Source: Candidatus Rokuibacteriota bacterium
GTDB lineage: Bacteria > Methylomirabilota > Methylomirabilia > Rokubacteriales > CSP1-6
Direction: 5' to 3'
DNA: 64,000 nt
Assembly (NCBI GenBank): GCA_003221615.1
Contig: QHSQ01000108.1
Location: 9,678 to 73,677, forward strand
In this document: positions 16,234-51,410 of the stretch, in pieces
Layout of the letters: each line of letters starts with the position of its first letter
Position numbering within the stretch: the stretch's first letter is position 1
Notes under the pieces: model-generated
Told to the model about the DNA's origin: nothing
The model's input: the letters and a program-made list of their open reading frames with translations, nothing else
Databases searched by the model: none
Position numbers and translations under genes: made by a program

Positions 16234-17463
16234 GTGCCCAGATTCAACGAGTTCTACCTGAACCTCAATCAGAGCTATCTCTTCGCCGAGATCCGGCGCC
16301 GGACGAAGGTGTACACCGACGCGCATCCCGACGTTCGCCTGGTCGATCTCGGCGTCGGCGACGTGACCCAGCCTCTGCCCGCGGCCGTCGTGCGGGCGAT
16401 TCACGAGGCGGCGGACGACATGGCGCGGCGCGAGACCTTCAAGGGCTACGGGCCCTACGTCGGTTACGAGTTCCTGCGCGCCGAGATCGCGACCCACGAC
16501 TTCGGCTCGCGCGGCGTGAAGATCGCCGTCGACGAGGTCTTCGTGAGCGACGGCGGCAAGAGCGACAGCGCGAACCTCCAGGAGATCTTCGCGCAGGACT
16601 GCGTGGTCGCGCTCATGGATCCCGTTTACCCCGTCTACGCCGACAGCAACGTGGTCGCCGGGCGTAGCGGCCGCGCCGACGAGAGCGGCCGCTACGCTGG
16701 CATCGTGTACCTGCCCTGCACCGCCGAGAACAAGTTCCAGCCGGCGCTGCCCGACCGGCACGTCGACCTGATCTATCTCTGCTATCCGAACAACCCCACC
16801 GGGGCCGTGGTCACCCGCGAGGCGCTCGAGCGCTGGGTCGACTACGCGCGCGCCGAGGACGCGGTCATCCTGTACGACGCCGCCTACGAGGCGTACATCG
16901 TCGAGCCGGAAGTCCCCCACTCGATCTACGAGATCGATGGCGCGCGGGAGGTGGCGATCGAGTGCCGCAGCTTCTCGAAGAACGCGGGCTTCACCGGCAT
17001 GCGCCTGGCCTATACGGTCGTACCGAAGGAGACGCGTGGCCGCGGCGCGGACGGCAAGACGATGAGTCTCAACACCTTGTGGACGCGCCGCACGTCGATG
17101 AAGTCCAACGGCCCGCCCTACGTCATCCAGAAGGCCGCCGCCGCGGTGTACACCCCCGAGGGGCAAACGCAGGTGCGCGCGCTGATCGACTTCTACATGG
17201 AGAACGCGCGGATCATCGGCGCCGGGCTGAGGGCCGCGGGCTTCACCGTCTACGGCGGGCGCAACGCGCCCTACATCTGGGTCCGCACGCCGCCGTCGAT
17301 CGCGTCGTGGGATTTCTTCGACAGGGTTCTGGAGAAGGCGAACGTCGTCGGAGCGCCGGGCGCCGGGTTCGGTCCGAGCGGCGAGGGTTATTTCCGGCTG
17401 ACCGCGTTCGGATCTCGCGCGCAGACCGAAGAGGCGGTCGAGCGGATCAAGACGCGGATGTGA
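16234..17463 (+). CDS. dapL: LL-diaminopimelate aminotransferase
   Basis: GTG 16234 gives VPRFNEFYLNLNQSYLFAEIRRR..., the characteristic DapL N-terminus. PLP-aminotransferase core present (...SFSKNAGFTGMRLAYTVVP...). The upstream part of ORF 15739..17463 is antisense read-through of the SBP gene. Confidence 0.85.
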   Translation: MPRFNEFYLNLNQSYLFAEIRRRTKVYTDAHPDVRLVDLGVGDVTQPLPAAVVRAIHEAADDMARRETFKGYGPYVGYEFLRAEIATHDFGSRGVKIAVDEVFVSDGGKSDSANLQEIFAQDCVVALMDPVYPVYADSNVVAGRSGRADESGRYAGIVYLPCTAENKFQPALPDRHVDLIYLCYPNNPTGAVVTREALERWVDYARAEDAVILYDAAYEAYIVEPEVPHSIYEIDGAREVAIECRSFSKNAGFTGMRLAYTVVPKETRGRGADGKTMSLNTLWTRRTSMKSNGPPYVIQKAAAAVYTPEGQTQVRALIDFYMENARIIGAGLRAAGFTVYGGRNAPYIWVRTPPSIASWDFFDRVLEKANVVGAPGAGFGPSGEGYFRLTAFGSRAQTEEAVERIKTRM

Positions 17464-18211
17464 GGGCGCCGCGCCGCACCACCGCGCCGTCCCGTCCCTG
17501 CGAGCTTGCCAACGTCTGGGCCAGCAGCGCCGCCGTCGAGGGTGCGAGGCGGTGCTTCCGTGAGAGCTCGAGCACCGCCTGATAGAGCTGCGAATAGCGA
17601 ACGACCGTCGCCCGCGCGTCGCCCGCCTCCACACGGCACAGCGGATGGGTGAAGACGATGATCGACTCCACCCAGCGCAGGGTCGAGGCGGCCAGCTCGG
17701 GGTGGCGCTCGGTCAGAAAATACCGGATGGCGCACGCGCCAGAGTTGACCTGTCGGCCGATGCTCTTTCGCCGATATCCGTTGACGGACCAGTCGTCGCC
17801 CCAGCAGCGAATGTTCCCCGCGAGGCGTTTCGTCTCGATGACGACCACGCCACACGGGCCGATCAGCACGTGATCGATGTTGCCGTGCGCCAATCCGAGC
17901 GTCACGTCGTTGACGAGCCAGTAGTCGTCCGGGAGGCCACCGAGGAGATCGGTGACCAGGCGCTCGCCGAGGCGGCCGGTGCGCACGTTGCGCAGTCGTC
18001 GGGCCACGGGCCGGCCGAGCCGGAACGCGGTGACGACGGCGAGGAGCCCGACGCCCAGGTGGAGCGGGGTCGGATGGAACAGTCCGGAACCCGGCTCGCC
18101 GACGACCAGCGCAATTCCCAGGCTCGCAAGCACGATCAGACCGACGAGCGCGGCCCACAACCGCTGCTCGCGGCCTTCGAGGTAATGGCCCCCGACGCGC
18201 ACCTGCCGCAT
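17447..18211 (-). CDS. Membrane-anchored NERD (nuclease-related) domain protein
   Basis: Two N-terminal hydrophobic helices, then a NERD pattern (...GERLVTDLLGGLPDDYWLVNDVTLG..GNIDHVLIGPCGVVVIETKRLAG...). The ATG lies 1 nt after the mglB stop (TGAcATG). The 3' end overlaps the dapL 3' end by 17 nt. Confidence 0.8.
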   Translation of the reverse strand: MRQVRVGGHYLEGREQRLWAALVGLIVLASLGIALVVGEPGSGLFHPTPLHLGVGLLAVVTAFRLGRPVARRLRNVRTGRLGERLVTDLLGGLPDDYWLVNDVTLGLAHGNIDHVLIGPCGVVVIETKRLAGNIRCWGDDWSVNGYRRKSIGRQVNSGACAIRYFLTERHPELAASTLRWVESIIVFTHPLCRVEAGDARATVVRYSQLYQAVLELSRKHRLAPSTAALLAQTLASSQGRDGAVVRRGALTSAS

Positions 18212-18212
18212 G

Positions 18213-18695
18213 TCAGCTTGGCGGGGTCCAGGCCGGGCGCGACTCGGTTTCGCTCAGCGGCGCGGCGAATTCTCCCGCCGGCCTGGGGCGCGCGCGGGCT
18301 TCACCGAGCACGCCCCCGACCGTGCGGCTGGCCTCGCTGGCGAAGAGCCGCACCATGCCAACCGTGGTGCGCTCGTCGAAGATGGCGAGGAGGATCGCCT
18401 CGTCGTCGACGGTCGAGACGTGGATCGAGCGCTTCGTGCCCTCGTGGAAGAGCACGCTGAACTCAGGCTCGCCGAGCAGGTGGGCCATCGCCGCGGTGGA
18501 GCTGAAGGCGGCGGCCGCCAGCGCCGAGATGGACACCGCGTCGAGCGCCTGGGAGACGCCGTCCATCGCCAAGAGCTGACCGCTGCGGTCGATCAGGAGC
18601 GCCGCGCCCGCGCCCGATTCGCCGAGGAAGCGCGTCAGGATCTCCCGGATCCGCGTCGCGTCTTGCTGCTGGATGACGGTGTTACGAAGCTTCAT
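18213..18695 (-). CDS. mglB: Roadblock/LC7 domain protein, MglB-like
   Basis: Roadblock pattern (...GAGAALLIDRSGQLLAMDG....LAAAAFSSTAAMAHLLG...FHEGTKRSIHVSTVDDEAILLAIFD...). The start overlaps the mglA 3' end by 14 nt. Confidence 0.8.
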   Translation of the reverse strand: MKLRNTVIQQQDATRIREILTRFLGESGAGAALLIDRSGQLLAMDGVSQALDAVSISALAAAAFSSTAAMAHLLGEPEFSVLFHEGTKRSIHVSTVDDEAILLAIFDERTTVGMVRLFASEASRTVGGVLGEARARPRPAGEFAAPLSETESRPAWTPPS

Positions 18696-19299
18696 CGCGC
18701 CTCTCCCGCTTGCCGCCGAACTCGCTGGCGAGGGCCATGCGCGAGACGGTGTTGAGCGTGTCGAAGACGCCCTTCCCCCTGACGGCCGAGGCCTCGAAGA
18801 ACGGGACGCGCGTGGCTCGGCGGTTGAGGACGAACTCCAGGTAGGTCACGGGCGCCAGGTTCGGCAGGTCACGTTTGTTGTACTGCAGCACGTACGGGAT
18901 CTCGTCGAGCGTCGACTCGTACTCACGGAGATTCGCCTCCAGATCGCGCAGGCTCTCCACGTTTTCGCGCAGGCGGTCGAACTGCGAGTCGGCGACGAAC
19001 ACGAGGCCGTCGGCGCCCCGGAGGACCAGCCGTCGCGTCGCGTTGTACTGGACCTGGCCGGGCACGGTGTAGAGCTGGAAGCGCGTCTGGAACCCGCGCA
19101 CGGTGAGCGCCGACACCGGCAGGAAGTCGAAGTAGATCGTCCGGTCGTCGCCAGTCGCAAGCGAGATCATGTTCCCGCGATTCGCATTCGGCAGGCTGCG
19201 ATGGATGTACTGCAGGTTGGCGGTCTTTCCGGCCATGCCGGGTCCGTAGTAGACGATCTTGAAGTCGATGACCCGGTTCGCGTAGTTGATGACGGACAC
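18682..19299 (-). CDS. mglA: Ras-like small GTPase MglA
   Basis: The product can be aligned along its full length, by eye, to my recollection of Myxococcus MglA. P-loop YYGPGMAGKT, DRTIYFDFLP (intrinsic Arg region), the MglA-specific YTVPGQV in place of DxxGQ, and NKRD (G4). Confidence 0.9.
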   Translation of the reverse strand: MSVINYANRVIDFKIVYYGPGMAGKTANLQYIHRSLPNANRGNMISLATGDDRTIYFDFLPVSALTVRGFQTRFQLYTVPGQVQYNATRRLVLRGADGLVFVADSQFDRLRENVESLRDLEANLREYESTLDEIPYVLQYNKRDLPNLAPVTYLEFVLNRRATRVPFFEASAVRGKGVFDTLNTVSRMALASEFGGKRERRDEAS

Positions 19300-19302
19300 G
19301 GC

Positions 19303-21567
19303 TCAGCTCCGCACCAGGGCGTCCAGACGTGTCGCCGCCCGGTCGAGCTCGATCCGCGCGAGCCCCGGTCGATCGATGCGCCCGACGCCGACCAGCATCG
19401 TCACGCTGCCCGACGCCCCGTCCATCGCCCGCAAGACCAGACGATGTGCGCCGAGCTTCAGGATGACCGAGGTCACCGGGCCGACTTCGGCGCCCTCGAG
19501 TGCGAGGTGCAGATCACGCGCGAATCGCGCGAGCGGGAGCGCGTCGAGTGAGCTCGGCAGGAACAGGCACGCGCTGAGCGCGCCCGCATGGTCACGCAGC
19601 AGGGTCGGCGACACCGGACCGAACGCCGTCAGCGACCCCGCCAGGTCGCGCACCGCGGCCGGAACGTTGGCGGCGCGAAGCTCGAGCCCGGCGCCCGCTT
19701 CACTCCGCGGCCCATTGTGCTTGCCGTTGCCGGCTCCGAGCTGTACTTCCCGCGCCGCGATCCGGCACAGCCGCTCGAGCCAGGCCAGTGACGCGCGCGA
19801 GACGACCGCCGTCAGGAGCATCGCGCCGGCGTCGGGGGACTCGAATGGGGTCAGCACGATCGTCGCCCCGGCCGCTGTCAACGTGGCCTGTGTCACCGGC
19901 TCAGGAAGGCGGGCGTCGGCCAGGAACCCCACGAGCCGCGCCGCCGTGCGCACGACCGAATCTTCGCTGATGGCCGGCGCGACGACCGTGACGAGCGTGG
20001 TACCCGCGCCGTCTCGCTGCCCGATCTCGAGACCATTCAGGAGCGGCGCGAGCAAGGTGGCGATGCGTCGCGCTTGCTCGCTCCTGCCGCTCTCGGCCGC
20101 CACGTTCGCGGGCGCCGCGCTCGCAGAAGGTTCGAGCTCGACGATCGGCTCCGGTCCGGTCAGAAGCTCGGCACCGGGCTCCAGCTCGAATTCTGGCTCT
20201 GGTTCTGCCTCGGCCTCCGGCTCTTCCTCCGGCTCTTCCTCCGGCTCGGTCTCTTCGACCGCCTCGGGCTCGCGCGTCTCGTCCACCTCAGCGACGTCCG
20301 GTTCGGCTGTTTCTTCCACGTCGGGAGCGGCCGCCTCGGGAGGCGCCGGAGCATGCGGTTGGAACGGCGCGGGAAACTCTTCGATGTCGTGGAAGTCGGT
20401 CAGCGGCGTCTGGAGCGCGAGCAACGCCGGCGGGATCTGCGGCACCACTTCGTCGAGCGGCAGCAGCAACGAGCCGTCGGGCAAGCGATCCGCGATCTCC
20501 TCGTGAGTCAGCGCGAGCTCGTCCAGGGGGAACTGGTCGGCGACGACCTCCCACTTGACCGGCGCCAGCCCTTCGCCCAGATGCGGCATCAAGAGGTTTC
20601 GCGGCACGAGCAGCGAGACACCCGGCCGCTGCGCATCTTTCAACCCTTCGCGGCCGCGGGCGAACATCTCGACGGGGAGCTGCTCGGCGATGCGAAAGAA
20701 CGGCACCCGAATCATCGGCTCCGTCCAGTCGAGCGCGCGCTTCGGGGTCGTGGCGCCCGGCTTCGACTCCGCCGACGTGGGAACCGTGCTGCGCGGCGCC
20801 GCCGCTCCCACGACGGGCGGCTTGACGGACGCCGGCGGCGGTACGACCACCGGGGTTGACGGCGACGACGCGAGCGCCTGGCCGGCAGGCGCGGGCGACA
20901 AGACGATAGGGCTGGTCGGCGCGGCTGACGGCGCGATCGCCGACGCGACGACGGCCGCTGGCGCCGCTGGAGGTCGAGCTTGAGCCTGCGCCGCGGCGGC
21001 CTGCTCACGCTTTTGCGCGATCGCCGCGCGGGTAGCGGCGGCCGAATCCGCCGTAGGCCCTCCGAGTGGCCGGGGCGCCCCCAGGATCGCGGGCGCCTCG
21101 GGGCGCCGCTGAGCGAGGACCTCTCGCGCCTCGCGAGCCGCGCGGGGCAACAAGAGCGGCTTGAGGCGCGCGAACACCAGCGGCGCAGCCGTCAGCTGGA
21201 GCAAGGTCACCGCCGGCGAGCCCCAGAGCGCGAACGCGACCGCGGCGCCATAGTTGAGAAGGTCTGGGATCATGAAGAGCGCGCCGGTCGCCACCACGAG
21301 CACCGCATGCACCCCGCACATCGTGGCCGCCGCGCCGAGCACTGAACGGATCGAGAGCGGGCGCACGCTGACGAGCCCGACGAGCACGTAGAACACGGGC
21401 GGGATCACCAGAGCCGGCAGCACGAGCGCCGGCGAGGCTTCGAGCGGTGTGGCGCGAAGGCCCCGGGCGTGAAGGGCCAGCACCGCGCAAGCGTAGAGCT
21501 CGAGACCGAGCGAGAGCTCGAGCGCCCAGACCAGCCTCACCCGCGAGGAGCGTGGCCACGCCATCAA
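19303..21567 (-). CDS. Large multi-domain protein: N-terminal TM bundle, Pro/Ala-rich linker, conserved central module, acidic PE-rich repeat, two C-terminal Roadblock-like modules
   Basis: The ATG overlaps the stop of the upstream REC/Roadblock gene (ATGA). There are 4-5 hydrophobic helices in the first ~140 aa and a low-complexity AP-rich region. The acidic stretch reads EETAEPDVAEVDETREPEAVEETEPEEEPEEEPEAEAEPEPEFELEP. C-terminal segments (...TLVTVVAPAISEDS..., ...VTSVILKLGAHRLVLRAMDGASGSVTMLVGVGR...) resemble the Roadblock/LC7 alpha-beta-alpha pattern; this assignment is an inference. Confidence 0.7.
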   Translation of the reverse strand: MMAWPRSSRVRLVWALELSLGLELYACAVLALHARGLRATPLEASPALVLPALVIPPVFYVLVGLVSVRPLSIRSVLGAAATMCGVHAVLVVATGALFMIPDLLNYGAAVAFALWGSPAVTLLQLTAAPLVFARLKPLLLPRAAREAREVLAQRRPEAPAILGAPRPLGGPTADSAAATRAAIAQKREQAAAAQAQARPPAAPAAVVASAIAPSAAPTSPIVLSPAPAGQALASSPSTPVVVPPPASVKPPVVGAAAPRSTVPTSAESKPGATTPKRALDWTEPMIRVPFFRIAEQLPVEMFARGREGLKDAQRPGVSLLVPRNLLMPHLGEGLAPVKWEVVADQFPLDELALTHEEIADRLPDGSLLLPLDEVVPQIPPALLALQTPLTDFHDIEEFPAPFQPHAPAPPEAAAPDVEETAEPDVAEVDETREPEAVEETEPEEEPEEEPEAEAEPEPEFELEPGAELLTGPEPIVELEPSASAAPANVAAESGRSEQARRIATLLAPLLNGLEIGQRDGAGTTLVTVVAPAISEDSVVRTAARLVGFLADARLPEPVTQATLTAAGATIVLTPFESPDAGAMLLTAVVSRASLAWLERLCRIAAREVQLGAGNGKHNGPRSEAGAGLELRAANVPAAVRDLAGSLTAFGPVSPTLLRDHAGALSACLFLPSSLDALPLARFARDLHLALEGAEVGPVTSVILKLGAHRLVLRAMDGASGSVTMLVGVGRIDRPGLARIELDRAATRLDALVRS

Positions 21568-22412
21568 AGCGCCTGCACGAGCTCCGGCACGGCTTTCCTC
21601 ACGTAGTAGCGCACCTTGCCCAAGACACCTTGATCACCGACCAGCACCGCCAGCAGCGCTGAGGGCCCGACACCGTGCAGCAGCAACGTGCCGGACTCGT
21701 ACTCGAGGATCGTGCCCACCAGCCGCCCCTGGCCGAGCTCGCGTCCGATGCCGTCGGACGCCTCGGCCAGACACGAGGCCAGCGCGCCGGCCACCTCGTC
21801 GGCGTCGGGCGCGAGGTCGCCGGCGGTCTCGATCAGGAATCCCTCGCGATCGGTGAGCGCGACGAAGCGGATGCCCGGCGTGCCGGCGAGCGCCTCCAGG
21901 CGCTTCTTGAGGCCCTGGTCCGACGGCGCGGGGGCGGTCGACGCGGAGGAGGGTCCATTCGACGCGGGCACGGGCGCCGACGACGTGGGTATGGACAGCG
22001 GCGCGGGCGGAGCCGCGGCGGCCGCCTTCTGCGTTCCGTTGGAGCGCCCGGCGAGCAGGTGGTCGATCTTCCGCACGAGGTCGTCGACGCCGAACGGCTT
22101 GAACATCACCTCGTCGGATCGCACCTCGGCGGCCCGCGCCTGGACCGTGCCGTTGTCGATCCCGGAGATCAGGAGCACCGGCGTCGCGCCGATGGCGGGA
22201 TGGGTCCTCACGTACTGGCAGATCTGATAGCCGTCCTTGTCAGGCAGGATCACGTCGCAGATCACGACGTCGGGTCGGTCGCGATCGATCATCAGGATCG
22301 CCTCGGCGCCGGACGCGGCGGCGAGCACCTGAAGCCCACGACCCTCGAGCGCTTTCTCGACGACCTTCCTCACGCTCAAGCTGTCGTCTACCACGAGGAC
22401 CTTCGGCATCAC
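21564..22412 (-). CDS. Response regulator: receiver domain fused to Roadblock/LC7 domain
   Basis: Canonical REC (VLVVDDS..., VVICDVILPDKDG, LLISG, MFKPF), a Ser/Pro/Ala linker, then a Roadblock pattern (...IRFVALTDREGFLIETAGD...ILEYESGTLLLHGVGPSALLAVLVGDQGVLGKVR...). Confidence 0.85.
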   Translation of the reverse strand: MMPKVLVVDDSLSVRKVVEKALEGRGLQVLAAASGAEAILMIDRDRPDVVICDVILPDKDGYQICQYVRTHPAIGATPVLLISGIDNGTVQARAAEVRSDEVMFKPFGVDDLVRKIDHLLAGRSNGTQKAAAAAPPAPLSIPTSSAPVPASNGPSSASTAPAPSDQGLKKRLEALAGTPGIRFVALTDREGFLIETAGDLAPDADEVAGALASCLAEASDGIGRELGQGRLVGTILEYESGTLLLHGVGPSALLAVLVGDQGVLGKVRYYVRKAVPELVQAL

Positions 22413-22418
22413 GTCCTC

Positions 22419-23204
22419 CTAGGAGATGGGAGCCACGGCCGCGTCTGCGCGGCCCTCGTCGATCTCGGCGGCGGCGCTCAGCAAGAGCTGCTTGAGATCC
22501 CGATGAATCGTCTTCGCGGCTTTGACCGCCGTCGCCTCGAGTGGATTGAACGCGAAATTCCCGGTCGCCTCGCCGTGCGCCGCGATCAGCAAGGCCGCGA
22601 AGGCCGTCTCGCCGATGAGCCCGAAGAACTCCGCGTGCACGACCCGTCCGCGGTCGAAGAAGACGGCGCCGCGCCCCGACGGCAGCGTGACCACGAGCTG
22701 GCCGGTCTTGCCGCCGAGCGCGATCGCCTGCGTGATGTCCGGCAGCTCCATCACCGCTAGCGACCCGCGCAGGCCGTGGGCGCCGTCGGGCTGGGGGGCG
22801 GGCGCGGTCGGCTCGCTCGTCGCGACGGGCGGCTGCGCCGCGCGCCCCAGGAGGTTGGCGACCTCGGAGACGATCGCGGTGAGTGGCAAGTCACCGGCAA
22901 GCGTCTGGTCCGGCTTGCCCTCCAGCATCGTCGGGGCCGCCTCATCACCGGGGCTCACGAGCAGCAGGAACAGCACGCCCGTCATCAGGGGATCCTTGCG
23001 GACGATCGAGCATAGCTCGTAGCCGTCGATGTCCGGCACGCCCACACGGCTCACGATGAGATCGGGCCGATTGCGCTCGAGCATCGTCAGCGCGAAGGAG
23101 CCGCTGGTCAGGGCCAGCACGTCGCTGAAGCCGCCCTGGGCCAGGGCCGCCTGCATCGCAGCGAGCCCCGTTCGGTCCGGATCGATCACGATCACGCGCG
23201 GCAT
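22419..23204 (-). CDS. Atypical receiver domain (phospho-acceptor Asp replaced) fused to C-terminal DUF4388/PATAN domain
   Basis: REC-like N-terminus whose acceptor position reads PDLIVSRVGVPDIDG (Arg where Asp is expected). The C-terminus LRGSLAVMELPDITQAIALGGKTGQLVVTLPSGRGAVFFDRGRVVHAEF...GETAFAALL...GNFAFNP matches the DUF4388 consensus pattern. Confidence 0.8.
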   Translation of the reverse strand: MPRVIVIDPDRTGLAAMQAALAQGGFSDVLALTSGSFALTMLERNRPDLIVSRVGVPDIDGYELCSIVRKDPLMTGVLFLLLVSPGDEAAPTMLEGKPDQTLAGDLPLTAIVSEVANLLGRAAQPPVATSEPTAPAPQPDGAHGLRGSLAVMELPDITQAIALGGKTGQLVVTLPSGRGAVFFDRGRVVHAEFFGLIGETAFAALLIAAHGEATGNFAFNPLEATAVKAAKTIHRDLKQLLLSAAAEIDEGRADAAVAPIS

Positions 23205-23211
23205 GGTCGCC

Positions 23212-26130
23212 TCAGGCTCCCGCGCGCGCCGGCGTCGCGACGGCGAGCGACTCGATCAGCTGAACGAAGCTCGCCTCGTCGACCGGCTTGGCCACGTAGT
23301 GCTCCACGCCGAGCTCGCGCGCGAGGTTGACGTGCTTGGCGCCGGCCCGCGTGGTCAGGACCACGACCGGCAGGTCGCATGTTCTCGGCTCACGGTTGAG
23401 GTCGCGGATCAGCTCGTAGCCGTTGAGGCGCGGCATCTCCAGATCCGTGACGATGACGTCCACCGACTGCTCCGAGAGCTGTTGCAGCGCTTCCGCGCCG
23501 TCCCGAGCGGCGACGACGTGGAACCCGGCGCGCTCCAGCATTCCGCCGACGAACCTGCGCACGCTGACCGAGTCGTCGACGAGCAAGACGCGGCGCCTGG
23601 CCTCGACGGCCGGCGCGGCGACCGCCTCGCGCTCGCGACGAAACTCGCCGGCGCGCGGCCGGGCCGACGCCGCGCTCATCTCGAGGAGCTTCAGCGAGTC
23701 GAGCAGCAGGACGACCTGCCCCTGCCCGGTGACGGTCGCGCCGGCGAAGGGCCCGATGCCCTGCAGGAAGGCGCCGAGATTCTTGATCACGATCTCTGCC
23801 TTGCTGAGGAACTCGTCCACGACCACGGCGAGCGTCTTGCGCCCGGTTCGGAGGGTGACGACCGACAGCGGCCCAGCGGTCGCGCGGCCCGCGATCTGGA
23901 GCACGCGATCCAGCCGCACGAGGTCCACGCTCTCGCCCTCGATCTCGATCGACTCGACGCCGTCCATGGTCCGGATCTCTTCCGGACGGACGTGGATCGC
24001 CCCCTTCACGGCCGGGACTGGGATCGCCAGGGTCTGCGGCCCCACGTTCACCATGAGCGCATCGGCGATGGCGACGGTCAGCGGCAGACGTATCCTGAAG
24101 CGCGTGCCGCGCCCCGCCTCGGTCTGCACCTCGATCTCGCCGCCGAGGCGGCCGACGTTCGAGCGCACGACGTCCATGCCGACGCCGCGGCCCGCGGCGG
24201 TCGTCACCGAGGTAGCGGTGGTGAGGCCGGGCAGGAAGATCAGGTCGAGGATGTCGCGCTCGCCGAGCCGCGCCAGGGTCTCGGCCGTGGCGAAGCCGCC
24301 GCGCCGCGCGGCTTCCGCGACGGCCTCCACGTCGATGCCGCGGCCGTCGTCCGCGACCTCGATGTAGATCGACCCACCCTTGTGGGCGGCGCCGAGGTGG
24401 ATCGTGCCCTGCGGCGGCTTGTCCGCACGGCGGCGCACCTCCTCGGGCTCGATGCCGTGGGCGATGGCGTTGCGCACCAGATGGATCAGGGGATCGGCCA
24501 TGAGCTCGACGATGGTCGTGTCCATCTCGACCGTCTCGCCGCGGACCTCCAGCACGACGCTCTTGCCGGCGGCCCGCGAGCCGTCACGCACCATTCGGAC
24601 GAACGGCGCGAAGAGTCGGCCGACGGGGACCATGCGCGCGCGCGTGATCTGACCGCGCAGCTCGCCGCTGAGGCGCTGGACGCCGCCGGCGTCCTCCCGC
24701 ACGACCCGCACCAGACCGGTCAGCTCGTGCTGGATCTCCGTGAGGTCACTCGAGATCTCGCCGACACGGCGGGCGAGGAGGTTGAAGTCATCGTAGCGGT
24801 CGAACTCGAGGTCGTCGAAGAACTCCCCCAGTGGAGACGCGCCCGCCTCGGTCGAGCCCCCGCCCGACGAGCGGACGGGCGGCACCAGACGGTCGGCGTA
24901 CTTCGACTCGAACTCGGCGACGGTCTGGGTCATGCGCGATTGCGTGAACGACAGGAGCTCGCCGGCCTGCTCGAGCTGGACCAGGTGGCGCTCCAGGCGG
25001 CTTCGCGTGATCACGAGCTCACCGACCAGGTTCATCAGCGCGTCCAGTCGATCGAGGCTGACGCGGATGCTCGGACGCACCCTACGCGCTGCGGCCTCGC
25101 GGCCCGAACGGCCCCGCTCCGGGCCACGCGTGACGGGCTCGGGAGCGTGGGCGACGCGCTCGGCGGCCACCGCCGGCTCGAGACGCTCGGGCGCCTCCGC
25201 GACGGATGGCTGGCTCGTCGCGACCGCGCTCACCGCCGCCGCGTCGTCGGCGGTCGGATGCTCGACCGATTGGACGCTTGGCTGAGGCGTCAGCGTCGTC
25301 CCCGTGCCGATCGCCGGCAATGAAGCGAGGAGCCCCATCGCGCGCTCGTAGGCGGTGGCGCGCGTCTCCGCTCGGTCCTCCCCGCTCCGCACGAGGAGGC
25401 GAAGGGCATCGAGGCCGGCGAAGACGGTCTCGATCGCGGCTCGATCCAGCGGGCGCTGATGCTCGCGGATCTGGCCGAGCATGTCCTCGACCCGATGCGC
25501 GAGGTCGCCGACCATTCCGCACCCGACCGTGTAGGCGGCACCCTTGAGCGTGTGGACCGCCCGGAACAGCGCCGCGATCTCGGACTCGGTCGCGCCCTCG
25601 CCCTCGAGCGCGACCAGCGACTGCGCCATCGATTCGAGGTGCTCGACCGCCTCCGGCACGAAGTACTCGAGCACGTCCGCCTGGTCGGTGAAGAATCGGT
25701 CGAGCTCGGCGAGCCGCCGCGACGTCTCATCGGCCGGCGGCGGTGGCGTCGAGGGGACCAACCCCGCGAGTGACTCCGCGATCGCCTCGGCGTCCTCCAC
25801 CCCCGTCTCGCCGATACCGTCGAGCGCCGTCTTGAGCCAGAACACCATGTCGCCGAGTGACGCGAGGGCGCGGCGATCCGTGCCCGGGGGCGTCGCGCCT
25901 ACTCGCTCCACCGCCCCCTCCATCGCCGCGGCGAGACCGGCCACCTGAGGAAAGCCGCTGAGGGCGGCCGAGCCGCGGAGGCGATGCGTCACCACCGCCA
26001 GATGCTCGACCACGGCGGTCGGATCCGCCGAGCCCCGGAGCGTAGCGAGGCCGTCCTCGACGGCGGCGAGGGTGTCCCACGCCTCCATCAGGAAGACACT
26101 CAGGAGAAACTGCCGGTCGTCTTCAGCCAC
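23212..26130 (-). CDS. cheA: Hybrid CheA-type histidine kinase (HPt-HPt-dimerisation-HATPase-CheW-like-REC)
   Basis: GTG start after GGAGG. Two HPt motifs (VVTHRLRGSAA and AVHTLKGAA). Dimerisation segment (RVSLDRLDALMNLVGELVI). ATPase boxes (HLVRNAIAHGIE; DDGRGID; GRGVGMDVV). CheW-like domain, then a C-terminal canonical REC (VLLVDDS...VIVTDLEMPRLNG...KPV). Confidence 0.9.
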   Translation of the reverse strand: MAEDDRQFLLSVFLMEAWDTLAAVEDGLATLRGSADPTAVVEHLAVVTHRLRGSAALSGFPQVAGLAAAMEGAVERVGATPPGTDRRALASLGDMVFWLKTALDGIGETGVEDAEAIAESLAGLVPSTPPPPADETSRRLAELDRFFTDQADVLEYFVPEAVEHLESMAQSLVALEGEGATESEIAALFRAVHTLKGAAYTVGCGMVGDLAHRVEDMLGQIREHQRPLDRAAIETVFAGLDALRLLVRSGEDRAETRATAYERAMGLLASLPAIGTGTTLTPQPSVQSVEHPTADDAAAVSAVATSQPSVAEAPERLEPAVAAERVAHAPEPVTRGPERGRSGREAAARRVRPSIRVSLDRLDALMNLVGELVITRSRLERHLVQLEQAGELLSFTQSRMTQTVAEFESKYADRLVPPVRSSGGGSTEAGASPLGEFFDDLEFDRYDDFNLLARRVGEISSDLTEIQHELTGLVRVVREDAGGVQRLSGELRGQITRARMVPVGRLFAPFVRMVRDGSRAAGKSVVLEVRGETVEMDTTIVELMADPLIHLVRNAIAHGIEPEEVRRRADKPPQGTIHLGAAHKGGSIYIEVADDGRGIDVEAVAEAARRGGFATAETLARLGERDILDLIFLPGLTTATSVTTAAGRGVGMDVVRSNVGRLGGEIEVQTEAGRGTRFRIRLPLTVAIADALMVNVGPQTLAIPVPAVKGAIHVRPEEIRTMDGVESIEIEGESVDLVRLDRVLQIAGRATAGPLSVVTLRTGRKTLAVVVDEFLSKAEIVIKNLGAFLQGIGPFAGATVTGQGQVVLLLDSLKLLEMSAASARPRAGEFRREREAVAAPAVEARRRVLLVDDSVSVRRFVGGMLERAGFHVVAARDGAEALQQLSEQSVDVIVTDLEMPRLNGYELIRDLNREPRTCDLPVVVLTTRAGAKHVNLARELGVEHYVAKPVDEASFVQLIESLAVATPARAGA

Positions 26131-26153
26131 GCCACCTCCAGTCGATCGGAGCC

Positions 26154-27929
26154 TCAGCTGCTCAGCTTGAACCGTGCGAGGCTCGCCGTGAGCGCCTCGG
26201 CCACGCGGACCATCTGATCCATGGTCTTCCGCGTCTCGACCACGGCCTTCTCGGTCTCGACCGCCACGCCGGCGATCGACTGGACCGCGACCGCGCCGCC
26301 CTCGACGCCCCGCACCTGGTCCTGCGTCGTCTGCGAGATCTCCAGCGCCAGCGCCGCGGACTTCTGCGAGATCTCGCCGATCTGGTGCAAACGCTCGCCG
26401 GCCTCGACCGTCACCTTGAAGCCCGCCTCGACTTCACGAGTGCCTTCTTCCATGGCCACGACCGCCTGCTGGGTCTCGGCCTGCACGGCCTTGATCAGCA
26501 CGACGATGTCCTTGGCCGCCTTGCCGGAGCGCTCGGCGAGCTTTCTCACCTCTTCGGCCACGACCGCGAAGCGCAGGCCGGACTCGCCGGCGCCAGCGGC
26601 CTCGATGGCGGCGTTGAGCGCCAGGAGGTTGGTCTGCGACGCGATGTCCTCGATCGTGTTCACGATCTCGGAGATCTCGAGCGAGCGATCGGCCAGGCTC
26701 TTGACCTTCTTCGAGATCCCCTGCACCTCGCCCCGGATCCGCTGCATCCCGGTGAGACTGGCGCGCACCGCGTGCTCGCCCTTGGTCGCGGAGTCGAGCG
26801 TCAGCTTGGCGGCCTCCGCGGAGGCCTCCGCGTTCCCGGCGACCCGCCGCATCGAGCGAGTCAGATTCTCCATCGCGTCGCTCACGCCCACGGCTTCCCG
26901 CGACTGCGTCTGAGCGCCGCCGGCCGTCGCTTCCATCGCGCCGATCATCTCCGTGGCGCTCGTCAGCACCTGCTGCGCGGTATCGCGCACGTCGTTGATG
27001 ATCATCGCCAGCTCGCCGACCATCACGTTGATCGCGTCGACGACGCTGCCGAGGGCGTCGGAGGTCACCTGGCCGCGCTTGGTCAGGTCCCCCTGCGCGA
27101 TCTCGGTCGCGATGTCGAGGAACCGCGTGATGTTGCGCTGGAGCTCCTCGCGCTTGTGGCGCTCCTCGTCACGCTCCGTTTCGGTCTGGACCAGCGACCG
27201 CAGCCGGACCACGGTGTCGTTGAAGGTGTTCGCGAGCTGCCCGATCTCGTCGCGTGACTTCACGACCACGAGCCTCGAGAGATCGCCCTGCCCCACGCGC
27301 TCGGCGACCCGCACGACCTGGATGACCGGCTTGGTGATCTGGTGGGCGAAGACCGCGCCGGCGAGGACCGCGAGCAGCGCGACGCCGCCGAAGACCAGGA
27401 GCAGGTTCTGGCCGGACTTGGCCGCCGCGGCGGTGATGATCGAGCGGTCCATCCCCACGCGAACCGTTCCGAGCTGGCCGGCGAGGACCGGCACGCCGAT
27501 GTCGATGATCTGCTGAACCGCCCCCGTGACCGGGTCGGCGTAGGCGATGTCGCGGACCTGCTGCGTCGCCTCGCCGGGCACCAGGTTGCGGTCGACGATC
27601 CCGGCCGGGACCAGCGGCGAGAACGTGTGCGCGACCAGCGTCTTCTGCGGGTCGTACACGATCACGTACTTGACGCCGTTGATGGCGGCGAACTGGTCGA
27701 CGGTGGCCTGCACCGTCGACGCGTCGCGGGTCAGCAGCAGGTCGACGCCCGAGCTGGCCAGGCTCTTGGCGATGGCGCTGCCCTTGGAGGTGAACTCGTC
27801 CGTCAGGTTCGTGGTGAGGGCGCGCACCGAGATCCACCAGGTGATCGTCGCCAGCGGAACGAGCGTCACCGCCAGGAACAGGATGATCTTCCCGAGGAGA
27901 CCCAGCCGCACGGTCCGTTGCTTGTTCAT
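26154..27929 (-). CDS. Methyl-accepting chemotaxis protein (TM1-periplasmic sensor-TM2-HAMP-signalling domain)
   Basis: The start ATG 27929 ([21 protein letters not shown]...) overlaps the stop of the upstream SBP gene (ATGA). HAMP (...[25 protein letters not shown]...) is present. The conserved hairpin tip reads [42 protein letters not shown]. The rest of listed ORF 26154..29153 is read-through. Confidence 0.9.
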
Positions 27930-29227
27930 GCTTTCACCGCCGCCGCCCAGTCCGTGATGGGGGCCCATCGAGCGTTCACCACTCTGGTGAAGTACACGTT
28001 GTCCAGCCCCTGATGCCGCTCGGGCCCGAACGTGAGGGGCGCGCCGATGCCGAGGTCGAAGCTCCTCAGTGATTCGAGCGCCTGGCGGAATCCGGCGCGC
28101 GTCGGGTTCGGTCCGGCGCGCCGTAATCCCTCGACGATCACCCGGGCATTGACGAAGCCTTCCAGGCTCCGGAAGCTGAGCTGCTCGGGCGCGTGCTTGG
28201 CATCGCGAAGATAGTCGGGAATCTGTGGATTGTGCTTCTCCATCAGCGCCCGATACTCGACGACGCCGGGCAGGCTCACGTCGTCGTAGCTCGGCACCAC
28301 CTGTGAATTGACGAGCGCCTGCGTGTAGTCGCGCGCGGTGGCCTGGCCATGCTTGAGGAGGAGATGCAACATCGCCTCGGAGCCGACGAACGACACGTTC
28401 GAGATCGGCACGGTCCAGCCCAGGTCCCGCGCGGTCCGCACGAACGCGCCGCAACCCTGATAGGCGCCGGTGCACAGCACCGCCTCGACGCCGGCCTCGC
28501 GAAGCGCCTGCACGGCCGGAGTCATGTCGTCCTCGAACTTGGCGCCGCGGATATAGGTGGCCTCGGCGGCGATCCGCATTCCGCGGTGCGCGAGCCCGCG
28601 GGCGACGCCGTCGGTACCGCTGCGGCCGTAGGCGTCGATCTGGTAGTAGACGCCGAACCGACGTACGCCCGTCTGCCAGAAGCGCTCGACGAGCGCCACC
28701 ATCTCCTGCCGGTACGAGGCCCGGATGTTGAAGACCTGCTCGAGATAGGGCTCCTCGCGCTGCGGCTGGGCGCCCGTGAAGTTGCCGACCAGGATCACCT
28801 GGCGGTCGGCATAGCGCTTGATCACCGGGAGCGCGCGCGTGAGCGTCGGCGTGCCGACGTAGTTCGAGAGAAAGAAGACCTGCTCCTTCTCGACGAGCTC
28901 GATCGTGTTCTTGATGCACGGAGTCGGCTCGTACCCGTCGTCGAGCGCGACGACCGAGATCGCGCGGCCGTGCACACCGCCGCGCTGATTGATTTCGCTG
29001 TAGTAGGCCAGCGCGCCGCGATAGAGCTCGACCCCGAGGCCCGCCGAGGGCCCCTTGAAGGCGGCGCTCATACCGATCCGAATGTCCTTGGTGCTCACGC
29101 CGGGGCTGGCGCCCCGCGCATCGATGCCGCTCCGGGCGGCCGCCTGGCCCCACGCCGAACGGTTCCGGCCCAGGACTCCGCCCACCGCGGCCGCCGAGAG
29201 CACCTTGAGCACCGTTCGCCGTTTCAT
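27926..29227 (-). CDS. Periplasmic binding protein, Leu/Ile/Val-binding (type 1, LivK-like) family, encoded inside the che operon
   Basis: GGAGGAGG SD, then ATG 29233 or 29227. Tat-like signal [20 protein letters not shown]. Core ...[53 protein letters not shown].... Confidence 0.85.
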
Positions 29228-29229
29228 CG

Positions 29230-29697
29230 TCATTCCTCCTCCCGCTGCGCTTCTCTCAGCGCCCGCAGAAGCCGTCCCGGATCGAGCAGGGGTACGAGCC
29301 GCTCGCCGTCGGGCAGAAACCCGAGGGCCCACCGCGCGTGGGGCTGCGGGCTCGACTCGTCGAGCGTCACGATGCCGCCGAACGCCTCGAGGCTGACCTC
29401 ACCGTCGATGACCAGTGCGACCTCGAATTCTTCGGCCTCCACGATCAAGGTCGACAGCTTGCGCCCGCCGCGGCGGGCGGCGAGCCCGAGCACTGCACGG
29501 GCATCGGCGATCGGTACGACGTCGCCGCGCAGGTTGGCCACACCCACGAGATGCGGCGGCGCTAGCGGCACCGTCGTCCACTCCTCGAAGATCGCGACCT
29601 CGCGCACCTGGATGACGTCGAACGCGAACGGCTGGCCGGCGAGCGCGAACACGCAGGCGCGGACCGCCGCGGAGCTGTCGAGCAGACTGGTGCTCAT
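29230..29697 (-). CDS. cheW: CheW-like coupling protein
   Basis: ATG 29697 overlaps the cheY stop (ATGA). CheW pattern ...[20 protein letters not shown]...[23 protein letters not shown].... Confidence 0.9.
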
Positions 29698-30056
29698 CGG
29701 AGGAACCGCCTGACGATCGCGAGGAGCTGGTCGGCCGTGAACGGTTTCGCCAGGTACTCGTCCGCGCCCTGGCGCATGCCCCAGATGCGGTCGCTTTCCT
29801 GGTTCTTCGAGCTGACCACGATCACGCGCGCCTGCTTGGTGCGCTCGTCCCGGCGCACGCCGCGGAGCGCCTCGAAGCCGTTCCGCTTGGGCATCACGAT
29901 GTCGAGCAGCACGACGTCCGGCTGCTCCTTGGCGATCTTCTCCTCCAGCTGGTCGCCGTCGAGGTACGTGACAACGTCGTACCCGGCCGATCGGAGGATC
30001 GTTTCCATCACCTGGAGCTCGGAGTACGCGTCGTCGACCACCATCACCTTGGGCAT
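29694..30056 (-). CDS. cheY: Single-domain CheY-like response regulator
   Basis: ATG 30056 (MPKVMVVDDAY...) with GGGAGG upstream. Canonical REC residues (DD, VVLLDIVMP, VVSS, AKPF). Upstream codons of ORF 29694..30167 were discarded. Confidence 0.9.
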   Translation of the reverse strand: MPKVMVVDDAYSELQVMETILRSAGYDVVTYLDGDQLEEKIAKEQPDVVLLDIVMPKRNGFEALRGVRRDERTKQARVIVVSSKNQESDRIWGMRQGADEYLAKPFTADQLLAIVRRFLR

Positions 30057-30355: not shown

Positions 30356-31132
30356 ATGCTGTTCGCGCGAATCTGGCACCTGGTCCGGGGCACGAAACGA
30401 CAGCCGACGAGCGCACTGATGTTGCGGGCGCAGCGCCTTCGGGACGAGGGACGCTACCGGCGCGCGGCCGGGCTCGTCGACGAAGCGCTGGTCCACGATC
30501 CGAAGAGTGTCGTGGGGCATCTGTTGGCGGCCTCGCTCCACATGGTCCTGCGCGAGACCGGCCAGGCCAGGACCTCGTTCGAGCGAGTGCTCGCGCTCGA
30601 GCCGACGCAGCCGCGAGCGCTGCTGGGGCTCGCGCGCGTCGAGCTCGAGGACGGCGAGACGTCGGCGTGCTGCGCGCTGCTCAATCGAGCGCTGGCACGC
30701 TATCCGGACTTCCCGGAGGCACGCGCCCTGCTCGAGGTCGCCCGGGGGCTCCTGATAACCGCCGACACGAAGCGCGACACCACGTCGAACGGGACGGCCC
30801 ACGCCGACCGTCTGCGTCTGCCGGCCGAGAGCCGCGAAGCGTTGTTCATGCGAGCCGATGCGACCGTGATCGTCGCCGAGCCGCATGGACCGCGGACCGA
30901 CGCGGTCACCGCTCGCGCCGTGAAGCTCGCGACCGTCGCAACGGCGATGCTCGGACGCGCCGGGCTCGGTCCGTTGCGTCACGCCGTCATCGAGGGCGCG
31001 GCCGAGACGACGTACCTGCGCAGGGACGACGCGGCGCTGCTGACCCTGTCCTTCGACCGCGACGTGAAGTGCACGACGGCGCTGGGGCACCTCGAGCGGG
31101 TGTGGCGCAGGTGCCGCTCGGAGCTCGCATGA
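30356..31132 (+). CDS. TPR-repeat protein with C-terminal Roadblock-like region
   Basis: N-terminal TPR-like helices (...RYRRAAGLVDEALVHDPKSV...FERVLALEPTQPRALLGLARVELEDGE...LNRALARYPDFPEARALL...). C-terminus ...ALFMRADATVIVAEP....AVIEGAAETTYLRRDDAALLTLSFDRD... (Roadblock-like by inference). Confidence 0.7.
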   Translation: MLFARIWHLVRGTKRQPTSALMLRAQRLRDEGRYRRAAGLVDEALVHDPKSVVGHLLAASLHMVLRETGQARTSFERVLALEPTQPRALLGLARVELEDGETSACCALLNRALARYPDFPEARALLEVARGLLITADTKRDTTSNGTAHADRLRLPAESREALFMRADATVIVAEPHGPRTDAVTARAVKLATVATAMLGRAGLGPLRHAVIEGAAETTYLRRDDAALLTLSFDRDVKCTTALGHLERVWRRCRSELA

Positions 31133-31521
31133 GCGCCACCGCCGTCGCGACGCGTCCCGCGGACGGGCGCGACCTCCGTGCCGTGCTCGCCGAGCTTCTG
31201 AAGCTCGAGCACATCATCGGCGGGCTCGTCGTCGCTCCCGACGGGCTCGTGATCGCCGCCAATCTTCCGCGCGAGGTTCAGGCCGAGCCGCTGTCAGCGC
31301 TGGCGGCCGCGCTGGGTCGCGAGCTCGAGCTTCGCGGCCCTCGGCTTCGGCGCGGAACGTTTCCGACGGCACAGTTCGCGAGCGTGAGCGGATCCGCGTT
31401 TCTGGGCAGCACTCCCGTGGGCTACATCGTGCTGCTCGGTGAACCGCGCGCGGACTGGGACTCGGTTCGCTCGGGTCTGCGCGGCGCGCTCGGAACCGTC
31501 TATCGCGCCTGGGCGGGCTAG
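31129..31521 (+). CDS. Roadblock/LC7 domain protein
   Basis: The ATG overlaps the stop of the TPR gene (ATGA). Pattern ...IIGGLVVAPDGLVIAANLP....LSALAAALGREL....FASVSGSAFLGSTPVGYIVLLGEPRAD.... Confidence 0.75.
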   Translation: MSATAVATRPADGRDLRAVLAELLKLEHIIGGLVVAPDGLVIAANLPREVQAEPLSALAAALGRELELRGPRLRRGTFPTAQFASVSGSAFLGSTPVGYIVLLGEPRADWDSVRSGLRGALGTVYRAWAG

Positions 31522-47342: not shown

Positions 47343-48398
47343 TCAGCCCCGCTCGGCCGAGCGCCGCGCCACCTCCTCGGCCAGGTCCCGATGCTCGGCA
47401 CAGCCGATCACCGAGAGGTCGGGGCGAGGTCCCGCCGTGTCGATGAGGCGGCGAATCGCCCGGCGGCGTCGCTCCACTGGCCCGACGTCGAGCACTCCTC
47501 GCTCGATGTCACGGCCGAGCTTCGCCACCGCGTCGTCGCGCGCCTGGGCGCTCCGGCAGATGAGCGCGAGATCGCCTCCGGCGCCGAGGAACCGCCTCGC
47601 GGCCTCGGCGACACCCCAGGTGCTCGCGACCGCGGCCATCTCGAGGTCGTCACTCACGATCAGCCCGTCGAAGCCGAGACGCCGCCTCAACAGGCCCGAG
47701 ACGATCTCGGGCGAGAGTGACGCCGGAAGCTCCGGATCGAGCACGCGGTATCGGACGTGGGCGACCAGGACGGCGGGGCAACCCGCCGTGAGCACGGCAC
47801 GGAACGGGACGAGCTCGCCGCGTTCCAGGTCCTGGAGGGTCGCCGACGTTTCCGGCAAGGCGTGGTGCGAGTCGACCGAGGTCAGCCCGTGTCCCGGGAA
47901 ATGCTTGGCGACGGGCACGAGACCCGACGGAAGCATCGCCTCGACGAACGCCACGCCGAGCGCGGCGACGGCGTCTGGAGCCGTGCCGAAGGCGCGGTCA
48001 CCGATCACCGTGTTCGCCGGATCGAGGAGGCAATCGAGCACGGGCGACAGGCCGGAGTCGAACCCGGCGGCGCGCAGCTCGCGCGCCATCGCTCTCGCCA
48101 CCGCCGCGGCCAGACGAGGATCGCCGCAGCGTCCGACGGCGGCCGCGGAGGGGAACCGCGTGAACGGCGGCGGCAAGCGGTGGACGCGGCCGCCCTCGTG
48201 GTCCACCATCACGAGGAGATCGGGATCGAGCCGCCGGGCCTCTGCGGTCAGCGCAAGCACCGTCTCGAGGCTCGGGCAATTGCGCGTGAACAACACGACG
48301 CCGCCCAGCCCGGACTGCTCCGCCAGCGCCACGACGGAGCCAGGTAGGTGCGTCCCGTCGAATCCGACGGCGAGGAGGTAGCCGGCTTCGCGCCTCAC
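47343..48398 (-). CDS. nagZ: Beta-N-acetylhexosaminidase (glycoside hydrolase family 3, NagZ-like)
   Basis: GTG 48398 overlaps the stop of the hybrid kinase gene (GTGA). Sequence ...LLVMVDHEGGRVHRL..., ...FDSGLSPVLDCLLDPANTVIGDRAFG..., ...AKHFPGHGLTSVDSHHALP... are GH3/NagZ hallmarks. Confidence 0.85.
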   Translation of the reverse strand: MRREAGYLLAVGFDGTHLPGSVVALAEQSGLGGVVLFTRNCPSLETVLALTAEARRLDPDLLVMVDHEGGRVHRLPPPFTRFPSAAAVGRCGDPRLAAAVARAMARELRAAGFDSGLSPVLDCLLDPANTVIGDRAFGTAPDAVAALGVAFVEAMLPSGLVPVAKHFPGHGLTSVDSHHALPETSATLQDLERGELVPFRAVLTAGCPAVLVAHVRYRVLDPELPASLSPEIVSGLLRRRLGFDGLIVSDDLEMAAVASTWGVAEAARRFLGAGGDLALICRSAQARDDAVAKLGRDIERGVLDVGPVERRRRAIRRLIDTAGPRPDLSVIGCAEHRDLAEEVARRSAERG

Positions 48399-51220: not shown

Positions 51221-51410
51221 GCCGAGGTACCTACGCAACTTGTAGAAATACCACAAGAAATGCCGCCTCGGTCAAGTCAGGAGATCCCCGCGCCCGTTCG
51301 CGTGGTCCTCCCGCCGGGCCGGAAAGGGCGGGCCCACCTGTTCCCAATTGGGCCGCCCCAACGACGGCGCGTTCTGCGATAGTGTGGGCCTCGCTCCAAG
51401 GAGGAGAGGG

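Follow-up and report, generated by a model that had tools for sequence, protein, structure and literature searches.

A receiver-Roadblock fusion protein encoded between hybrid cheA and mglA-mglB in Rokubacteria: a candidate terminal output regulator of a pilus-type chemosensory pathway

The stretch of DNA analysed here, referred to as the window, comprises 64 kb of contig QHSQ01000108.1 of Candidatus Rokuibacteriota bacterium; its G+C content is ~70% and its nearest relatives are metagenome-assembled genomes of Rokubacteria/Methylomirabilota. Its minus strand carries a tightly packed string of genes for CheY, CheW, a solute-binding protein (SBP), an MCP (methyl-accepting chemotaxis protein), a hybrid CheA, a receiver:PATAN protein, a protein in which a receiver (REC) is fused to a Roadblock/LC7 domain (REC:Roadblock), a protein that we call X, MglA, MglB and a NERD-domain protein. 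We regard it as an evenly poised proposition that a pilus-type (PATAN-associated) chemosensory pathway may have REC:Roadblock as its terminal, phosphorylatable output regulator, and that this regulator would act on the small GTPase MglA indirectly, through a stack of Roadblock domains, rather than being itself a GTPase-activating protein (GAP). The gene is laid out as follows.

21564..22409, minus strand: coding sequence of the REC:Roadblock response regulator, 281 aa from the ATG at 22409
22065..22400, minus strand: receiver (REC) domain, residues 5-116, PF00072
21915..22046, minus strand: flexible tether, about residues 123-166, rich in Pro, Ala and Ser
21567..21899, minus strand: Roadblock/LC7 domain, residues 172-282 including the C-terminal helix with the family-invariant R268-Y269, PF03259

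Residue numbers throughout refer to the 282-residue version of the protein, obtained when the open reading frame 21564..22412 on the minus strand is called mechanically from the GTG at 22412. The first-pass annotation had placed the gene at 21564-22412; that frame does exist, but its start had to be moved, the true one being almost certainly the ATG at 22409 (281 residues) because of a GGAGGA Shine-Dalgarno sequence overlapping the upstream stop codon and of homologues that begin MQKVL or MPKVL. At the other end the stop codon overlaps the ATG of the gene for X as TGATG, and both junctions are signatures of translational coupling. In Pfam, residues 5-116 match Response_reg (PF00072; E 1.5e-21, 77.1 bits against a cut-off of 30.2) over profile positions 1-110 of 111, and residues 172-257 match Robl_LC7 (PF03259; E 1.1e-11, 44.8 bits against a cut-off of 23) over positions 6-90 of 91. 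The receiver has a complete active-site quintet, consisting of D9, D10, the acceptor D53 (in VVICDVILPD; codon 22254-22256), S83 (LLISG) and K105 (MFKPF), and its best PDB match is 3t6k (E 3.3e-22). Thus the canonical receiver with these motifs, the Ser/Pro/Ala-rich spacer and the clear Roadblock sequence at residues ~170-282 that the first-pass annotation had described were all recovered.

An AlphaFold2 (AF2) model of REC:Roadblock, built on a shallow alignment of 31 sequences, has a predicted local distance difference test score (pLDDT) of 52. Along the tether the pLDDT is below 50 and no secondary structure is predicted. For the Roadblock domain, low-confidence predictions (pLDDT <50) place helices at 167-176, 204-225 and 261-281 and strands at 181-186, 232-238, 241-248 and 252-258, a pattern which fits the alpha-beta-beta-alpha-beta-beta-beta fold of Roadblock, although beta2 is not called.

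The fusion belongs to a large family. A database search, which the first-pass annotation had suggested for the combination of a receiver with Robl_LC7, returned 1941 homologues at E<=1e-3, and the best 120 of these, from sources named as Rokubacteria, Methylomirabilota and Binatia, all carry PF00072 and PF03259 at 67-99% identity; the architecture is therefore not due to chance. After clustering at 50% identity, 231 representatives score E<=1e-30 against REC:Roadblock, and the complete REC-tether-Roadblock arrangement is seen in ~30 clusters with 30-65% identity. Variants with an extra N-terminal receiver, i.e., REC-REC-Roadblock proteins of about 400-430 aa, also exist (P0262, P0268, P0273). 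Among 31 diverse family members D53 never varies, conservation of D9 and K105 is at least 90%, and the members from Meiothermus keep the active-site quintet too. Receiver and Roadblock are both strongly conserved in the homologue alignments, the tether being free in sequence and in length (about 25 to >110 residues). Across phyla the Roadblock alignment retains a Gly in the beta1-beta2 turn and the LE[YF] strand, and [VI]RY is invariant in its last helix. Most members of the Meiothermus type escape the Pfam Robl model, in keeping with what PMC4316618 reports. NCBIfam holds no model for REC:Roadblock, for X or for the 130-aa Roadblock protein listed below.

When the family Roadblock profile is compared with the PDB, it matches an archaeal Roadblock (3.5e-10), Myxococcus xanthus MglB (1.3e-9), CvnB5 (1.5e-9), LAMTOR2 (~1e-5) and MglC (0.25). 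Because MglB, CvnB5 and archaeal Roadblocks are matched about equally and MglC at 0.25 only, the fused domain is, judged by its profile, a genuine Roadblock of its own subfamily and neither an MglB nor an MglC orthologue. Orthology with MglB was rejected as no NCBIfam MglB model is matched, whereas the neighbouring MglB matches model NF052242; as a single sequence, the fused domain reaches MglB structures with E about 2e-5 to 4e-4 and the neighbour with 5e-21. MglC (7ct3/7cy1) was set aside on its profile E of 0.25 and partial domain coverage, its FDI and KRR surface motifs finding no place in the alignment. The protein as a whole is not RomR, with which it shares a receiver and a Pro/Ala/Ser-rich region, but whose Glu-rich, MglC-binding helix (PMC10329633) is replaced by a Roadblock at the C-terminus, nor is it a PatA-type regulator, as DUF4388 is found only in its upstream neighbour and not in its own polypeptide. 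An assignment to conservon CvnB was likewise dismissed, its neighbours being che genes and a group-1 MglA (TVPGQ, Arg finger).

These relationships bear on the first-pass proposal in its literal form, which we consider unlikely, namely that the fused Roadblock would bind MglA itself, as a GAP resembling MglB, an anti-GAP or an exchange factor switched by phosphorylation of D53. The fused domain is detectably related to MglB by profile and by hhalign (96.5%, E 9e-10, with negative receiver-profile controls), and a DxxG(F/Q) loop and an LGxVR helix motif are common to both; yet it stands at equal distance from MglB, CvnB and archaeal Roadblocks, is missed by the MglB model of NCBIfam, and has a dedicated MglB orthologue beside it in the locus. 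In an alignment to 6h5b_B, MglB A64 and G68, which belong to the two-helix MglA-binding face of M. xanthus MglB, A64 being needed for MglA binding there, correspond to E217 and G221, and the residue at the A64 position is Glu in the Rokubacteria clade and Ser in Meiothermus, which may speak against direct binding. On the opposite, four-helix side, MglB residues R115 and K120, which dock MglB onto the MglC Roadblock dimer (PMC10329633), align with the family-invariant R268 and with K273.

The remaining genes of the string, and two genes divergent from it, are the following.

29694..30056, minus strand: CheY, single-domain, first gene of the string
29230..29700, minus strand: CheW
27926..29332, minus strand: periplasmic solute-binding protein (Peripla_BP_6), between cheW and mcp
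26154..27962, minus strand: methyl-accepting chemotaxis protein (sCache_3_2, HAMP, MCPsignal)
23212..26130, minus strand: hybrid CheA, 972 aa, with 2 x Hpt, dimerisation domain, HATPase_c, CheW-like domain and C-terminal REC (Pfam)
22419..23204, minus strand: pseudo-receiver:PATAN (DUF4388) protein, 261 aa, directly upstream of REC:Roadblock
19303..21564, minus strand: protein X, about 753 aa, with no family in Pfam or NCBIfam
18682..19299, minus strand: group-1 MglA small GTPase, 205 aa
18213..18695, minus strand: MglB (Roadblock GAP of MglA), 160 aa
17447..18211, minus strand: NERD-domain protein, 1 nt after mglB
30356..31132, plus strand: TPR protein, its stop codon overlapping the start of the 130-aa Roadblock gene
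31129..31521, plus strand: stand-alone Roadblock protein, 130 aa, divergently transcribed

The position given to the fusion by the first-pass annotation, two genes downstream of the hybrid CheA and two upstream of mglA, is confirmed by these coordinates. MglA matches its counterparts from T. thermophilus (E 1.2e-70) and M. xanthus (4e-65) and contains an intrinsic Arg (DDRT) as well as TVPGQ. The mglB gene overlaps the end of mglA by 14 nt, and its product matches M. xanthus MglB (E 5e-21) and Pfam Robl_LC7, the best NCBIfam match being the MglB model. The presence of two Hpt domains in CheA and of a receiver at its C-terminus, together with the absence of cheB, cheR or any recognisable phosphatase from the chemosensory cluster (17447-30056), resembles in its gene and domain content the pilus-type (Tax/Pix, Chp) systems. 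The gene for the solute-binding protein sits between cheW and the sCache_3_2 mcp and overlaps the start of the latter, which suggests ligand sensing via a binding protein; its position is conserved in Methylomirabilota, and in Meiothermus its place is taken by a gene for an MHYT protein and a second mcp. The NERD protein, conserved in close relatives only, is probably not a core part for that reason; its best NCBIfam match, far below the cut-off, is a defence-system kinase model, and the 3' end of its gene overlaps a convergent aminotransferase gene. A scan of the cluster for promoters and terminators is uninformative, having returned 0 promoters and, within a gene, 1 terminator-like site. Two other sensor kinases in the window, a MASE1 histidine kinase (33456-35147, minus strand) and a DUF4118-PAS-PAS-GAF hybrid kinase with a receiver (48395-51256, minus strand), have no evident link to the string.

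The PATAN protein is the upstream neighbour of REC:Roadblock in every lineage examined. Pfam finds DUF4388 (59.6 bits) and a truncated Response_reg match (37 bits), and the acceptor Asp column holds an Arg (LIVSRVGVPD, as against VVICDVILPD in REC:Roadblock). In the other lineages the same column is occupied by G, Y, K, A, T, S or I, the acidic pair is variable and the lysine of KPF is absent, whereas an SGxFALTMLERxRPDLIVS motif is highly conserved despite the dead receiver. Because the acceptor Asp is replaced and the KPF lysine missing in every lineage, this domain is a pseudo-receiver and, as judged from its residues, cannot be phosphorylated, which would leave REC:Roadblock as the only member of the pair able to take a phosphoryl group. 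In Synechocystis, PATAN serves as the output domain and binds PilB1 and PilC, two proteins of the pilus motor (10.1101/2021.06.11.447907).

With CheY, the C-terminal receiver of CheA, REC:Roadblock and the dead PATAN receiver, the cluster holds four receivers and no cheB, cheR or recognisable phosphatase, as might befit a phosphate sink, in which the receiver of the fusion would only drain phosphoryl groups from CheA and the Roadblock would localise the sink. We find this very improbable, since a sink needs no Roadblock, which is as conserved here as the receiver and has surface residues invariant across phyla, and since CheY and the CheA receiver could already serve as one.

The conservation of the neighbourhood was followed in 28 Methylomirabilota loci, taken from GTDB species genomes and one 1.3-Mb contig and mapped with tblastn and hidden Markov models from the window proteins. 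The order cheY-cheW-(SBP)-mcp-cheA:REC-PATAN-REC:Roadblock-X is kept in 27/28, and mglA-mglB then follow in 23/28, down to a REC:Roadblock identity of 42%. Among the exceptions, two loci have X without mglAB within the locus (L006, L007), one has X, MglB and the small (130-aa) Roadblock and no MglA (L024), one has neither X nor mglAB (L026), and in one X is followed directly by the NERD gene (L027). In Methylomirabilota the pair of TPR and 130-aa Roadblock genes always accompanies the cluster, on one side or the other; at L008 a second MglB-like gene stands beside the pair. The recurrence of the fusion in the same operon as mglA would also suit direct binding of MglA, and so would the finding that Roadblock domains dimerise and that their dimers are generally platforms for small GTPases (PMC3747258, PMC10329633), but in other phyla mglA is not adjacent.

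Gemmatimonadaceae, Meiothermus (M. cerbereus, M. hypogaeus DSM 23238 and others) and several further lineages have full-length relatives that are 30-43% identical. Outside Methylomirabilota, REC:Roadblock closes an operon of the order cheY-cheW-mcp-mcp-cheA:REC-(REC)-PATAN-REC:Roadblock and is followed by genes for rRNA, PhoU, a cyclase, or LOR-like or aldehyde dehydrogenase proteins, with no adjoining mglAB; in one Meiothermus genome a 23S-5S-tRNA operon comes next, and in one contig (L086) the PATAN gene alone adjoins it. As only the che operon and PATAN are kept in other lineages, these are the universal partners of REC:Roadblock, and the mglAB linkage is a feature of Rokubacteria. Meiothermus has two paralogous che-PATAN-REC:Roadblock operons (L082, L088), whose REC:Roadblock proteins share only ~37% identity. 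A small GTPase encoded 6-8 kb downstream in Meiothermus (L082, 16635-19115) was rejected as an MglA partner, being of the Rup type, in the usual DUFY-DUFX-Rup cluster and beyond the rRNA operon; it has its usual coiled-coil and DUF partners with a TPR gene alongside, and its proximity is probably coincidental. Group-1 MglA-MglB are found at other loci in M. ruber, M. silvanus and Gemmatimonas (Table S2 of PMC4316618).

This distribution gives some weight to an output independent of MglA, in which REC:Roadblock and the PATAN protein would act directly on the motor of type IV pili or on some other NTPase, the Roadblock being a dimerisation or NTPase-binding module and the mglAB junction of Rokubacteria a lineage-specific operon merger of modules that serve one process. 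Outside Methylomirabilota the gene simply ends a che operon with unrelated genes next, the PATAN gene is the one neighbour that it has everywhere, the PATAN domain of cyanobacteria binds PilB/PilC (10.1101/2021.06.11.447907), and the Roadblock superfamily was, as cited in PMC4316618, first proposed as general NTPase regulators (Koonin & Aravind 2000). Against such an output, which seems to us improbable, stand the tight linkage with X and mglAB across the phylum, with overlapping stop and start codons, the accumulation of extra Roadblock proteins in one locus, and the possession of MglA-MglB elsewhere in the genome by other lineages.

Two or three Roadblock domains would accompany the fused one and MglB in the locus, namely the 130-aa protein and one or two domains in X. 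The 130-aa protein scores 21.3 bits with Robl_LC7, just under the cut-off, and is the closest relative of the fused Roadblock within the locus (hhalign 97.7%, E 1.9e-12). The 167 homologues of protein X all belong to this lineage. Its AF2 model (pLDDT 62 overall, 80-90 in the folded parts) predicts membrane helices at 6-139, then disorder in a Pro/Ala-rich region, a small domain folded at 285-383, renewed disorder in an acidic region and, at the C-terminus, two alpha-beta-beta-alpha-beta-beta-beta-alpha domains at about 487-609 (D1) and 637-753 (D2). The domain at 285-383 is confidently folded and is duplicated in some relatives. D2 aligns end-to-end with the fused Roadblock in hhalign (84.8%, E 6.6e-6), the values falling to 26% and E 7e-4 with broader alignments, and D1 has no significant match to Roadblock profiles in hhalign, its likeness to Roadblock being one of predicted topology alone. 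PDB profile searches with D1 and D2 gave nothing meaningful, and Foldseek with the whole X model against the PDB gave nothing at E<=0.001, a weak match to a LAMTOR chain appearing at rank 32 (TM 0.62, E 0.4). Since the D2 scores depend on the alignment, D1 escapes detection by sequence and Foldseek was null, we read X as a membrane protein with one probable (D2) and one possible (D1) Roadblock-like domain.

Taken as the output regulator proposed at the outset, REC:Roadblock would work in the following way. The hybrid CheA would phosphorylate D53, and the phosphorylated receiver would alter its association, either with itself or with the PATAN pseudo-receiver. With this association altered, the tethered Roadblock dimer would dock differently, by engagement or by release, on further Roadblock platforms, which may be the MglB dimer, X or the 130-aa Roadblock, by analogy with the docking of MglC on MglB or of Ragulator on Rag. 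The change in docking would in turn shift where, or how strongly, MglB acts on MglA-GTP and, together with the PATAN arm, which elsewhere binds PilB/PilC, would re-set the polarity of type IV pili. Docking of Roadblock on Roadblock is favoured because R268 and K273 align with MglB R115 and K120. In M. xanthus, MglA-GTP breaks the MglB-MglC contact allosterically (PMC10329633), and Rokubacteria carry twitching-motility genes (PMC5712423).

Several observations weigh against this proposal. Only one phylum has mglAB next to the fusion, with 4-5 of its loci lacking this arrangement, and no pil genes occur in the sampled rest of the 64-kb window, which holds metabolic and other signalling genes. 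The two-helix surface of the fused Roadblock appears to give no clear signal, because other phyla do not keep E217, at the A64 position. For X-D1 a Roadblock nature is suggested by predicted topology only and for X-D2 by borderline profile scores, and the AF2 model of REC:Roadblock says nothing on contacts between receiver and Roadblock and is unusable for a fold search.

The first-pass annotation had gone further and proposed that phosphorylation of the receiver switches a Roadblock partner of MglA, making the fusion the direct coupling point between His-Asp signalling and the GTPase. The intact receiver, the genuine Roadblock and the synteny from che to mglAB in 23/28 loci speak for the claim. 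Its directness fared less well, as the fused domain is neither an MglB nor an MglC orthologue, the true MglB lies two genes further on, mglAB adjacency is confined to Rokubacteria and the universal neighbour is PATAN; a direct coupling point is for these reasons a reasonable hypothesis and no more, and the indirect route, via docking of Roadblock on Roadblock and PATAN, suits the data at least as well. A bolder version of the indirect route, which we hold to be doubtful, is that the locus encodes a membrane-anchored, multi-layered Roadblock scaffold of X with its tandem Roadblock-like domains, the 130-aa Roadblock, MglB and the REC-tethered Roadblock. CheA-dependent phosphorylation of the tethered receiver would directly flip the way in which this scaffold assembles on MglA/MglB, with the dead-receiver PATAN protein as a phospho-dependent link to the pilus motor. 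If true, it would amount to a Ragulator-like GTPase platform under His-Asp control, and the fusion would be a 'Rosetta stone' for the putative contact that Frz-type response regulators make with MglB in Myxococcus.

The REC:Roadblock architecture itself is not new, having been noted in passing in 2014, when Wuichet & Sogaard-Andersen mentioned five MglB-like sequences with an N-terminal receiver and the Response_reg/Robl_LC7 fusions of Pfam (PMC4316618). The architecture is the same as here, but it is confined there to a methods passage, without a description of the family, its gene context, che linkage, PATAN pairing or function; the neighbourhood tables of that paper have no CheA or CheY entries, and its supplement does not identify the five fusions. 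The closeness of some PATAN genes to mglA/mglB had been remarked upon in 2006 and again in 2014. Our literature search found no description of a che-PATAN-REC:Roadblock operon, a dead receiver in the PATAN partner, protein X or a merged che-mgl cluster. The analysis defines a cross-phylum type of chemosensory operon that ends in a pair of pseudo-receiver:PATAN and REC:Roadblock proteins, and the locus represents a compact protein set and a natural test case for the path from chemotaxis-type phosphorylation to a small-GTPase switch. The relatives from culturable, thermophilic Meiothermus, including M. hypogaeus DSM 23238, offer proteins suited to biochemistry and structural work.

Among known systems, the NitrOD3 proteins of Thaumarchaeota carry a Roadblock-related output domain fused to a receiver (Galperin et al. 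2018, PMC5847659), but they are archaeal and no che or MglA context has been described for them. In the actinobacterial conservons, made up of the histidine kinase CvnA, the Roadblock CvnB, CvnC and the GTPase CvnD, parts of a two-component system also meet a Roadblock, and CvnB5 is matched at 1.5e-9; the conservons differ in their membrane kinase without a receiver, in DUF742 and in a group-2 MglA. Ragulator-Rag, with LAMTOR heterodimers under the Roadblocks of Rag, resembles the locus in having several Roadblocks per system, one of them membrane-anchored, in the service of a small GTPase. The profile match to LAMTOR2 (~1e-5) and the weak LAMTOR match of the X model (TM 0.62) do not indicate orthology, stacking is hypothetical here, and nothing in eukaryotes corresponds to control by His-Asp phosphorylation.

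The cyanobacterial Tax/Pix systems, whose output is type IV pili, are alike in CheY, CheW, MCP, a hybrid CheA with a C-terminal receiver, a PATAN regulator and the lack of CheB/CheR (10.1101/2021.06.11.447907). Compared with PatA of Tax/Pix, the PATAN protein described here has its domains in reversed order, with the receiver first, and lacks the acceptor Asp, and a second regulator with a Roadblock output is added.

The closest functional analogue is the polarity module of M. xanthus, consisting of Frz, RomR-MglC-MglB and MglA. A chemosensory kinase, receiver proteins, Roadblock proteins and MglA/MglB come together in one process in both; RomR, with its receiver, disordered region and acidic helix, resembles the N-terminal two thirds of REC:Roadblock, and MglC provides the case of one Roadblock dimer docking on MglB through R115/K120, the residues aligned with R268/K273 here (PMC10329633). 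In M. xanthus, however, the che, rom and mgl genes are dispersed, whereas receiver and Roadblock form one polypeptide inside a che operon here. For that module, FrzX and FrzZ were said in 2023 to act 'by unknown mechanisms' (PMC10329633), and direct Frz-MglB interactions were said in 2026 to 'still need to be demonstrated', even though the localisation of FrzX~P depends on MglB (PMC13408092). A receiver fused to a Roadblock and encoded between CheA and mglA-mglB points to the coupling of receiver and Roadblock as the interface.

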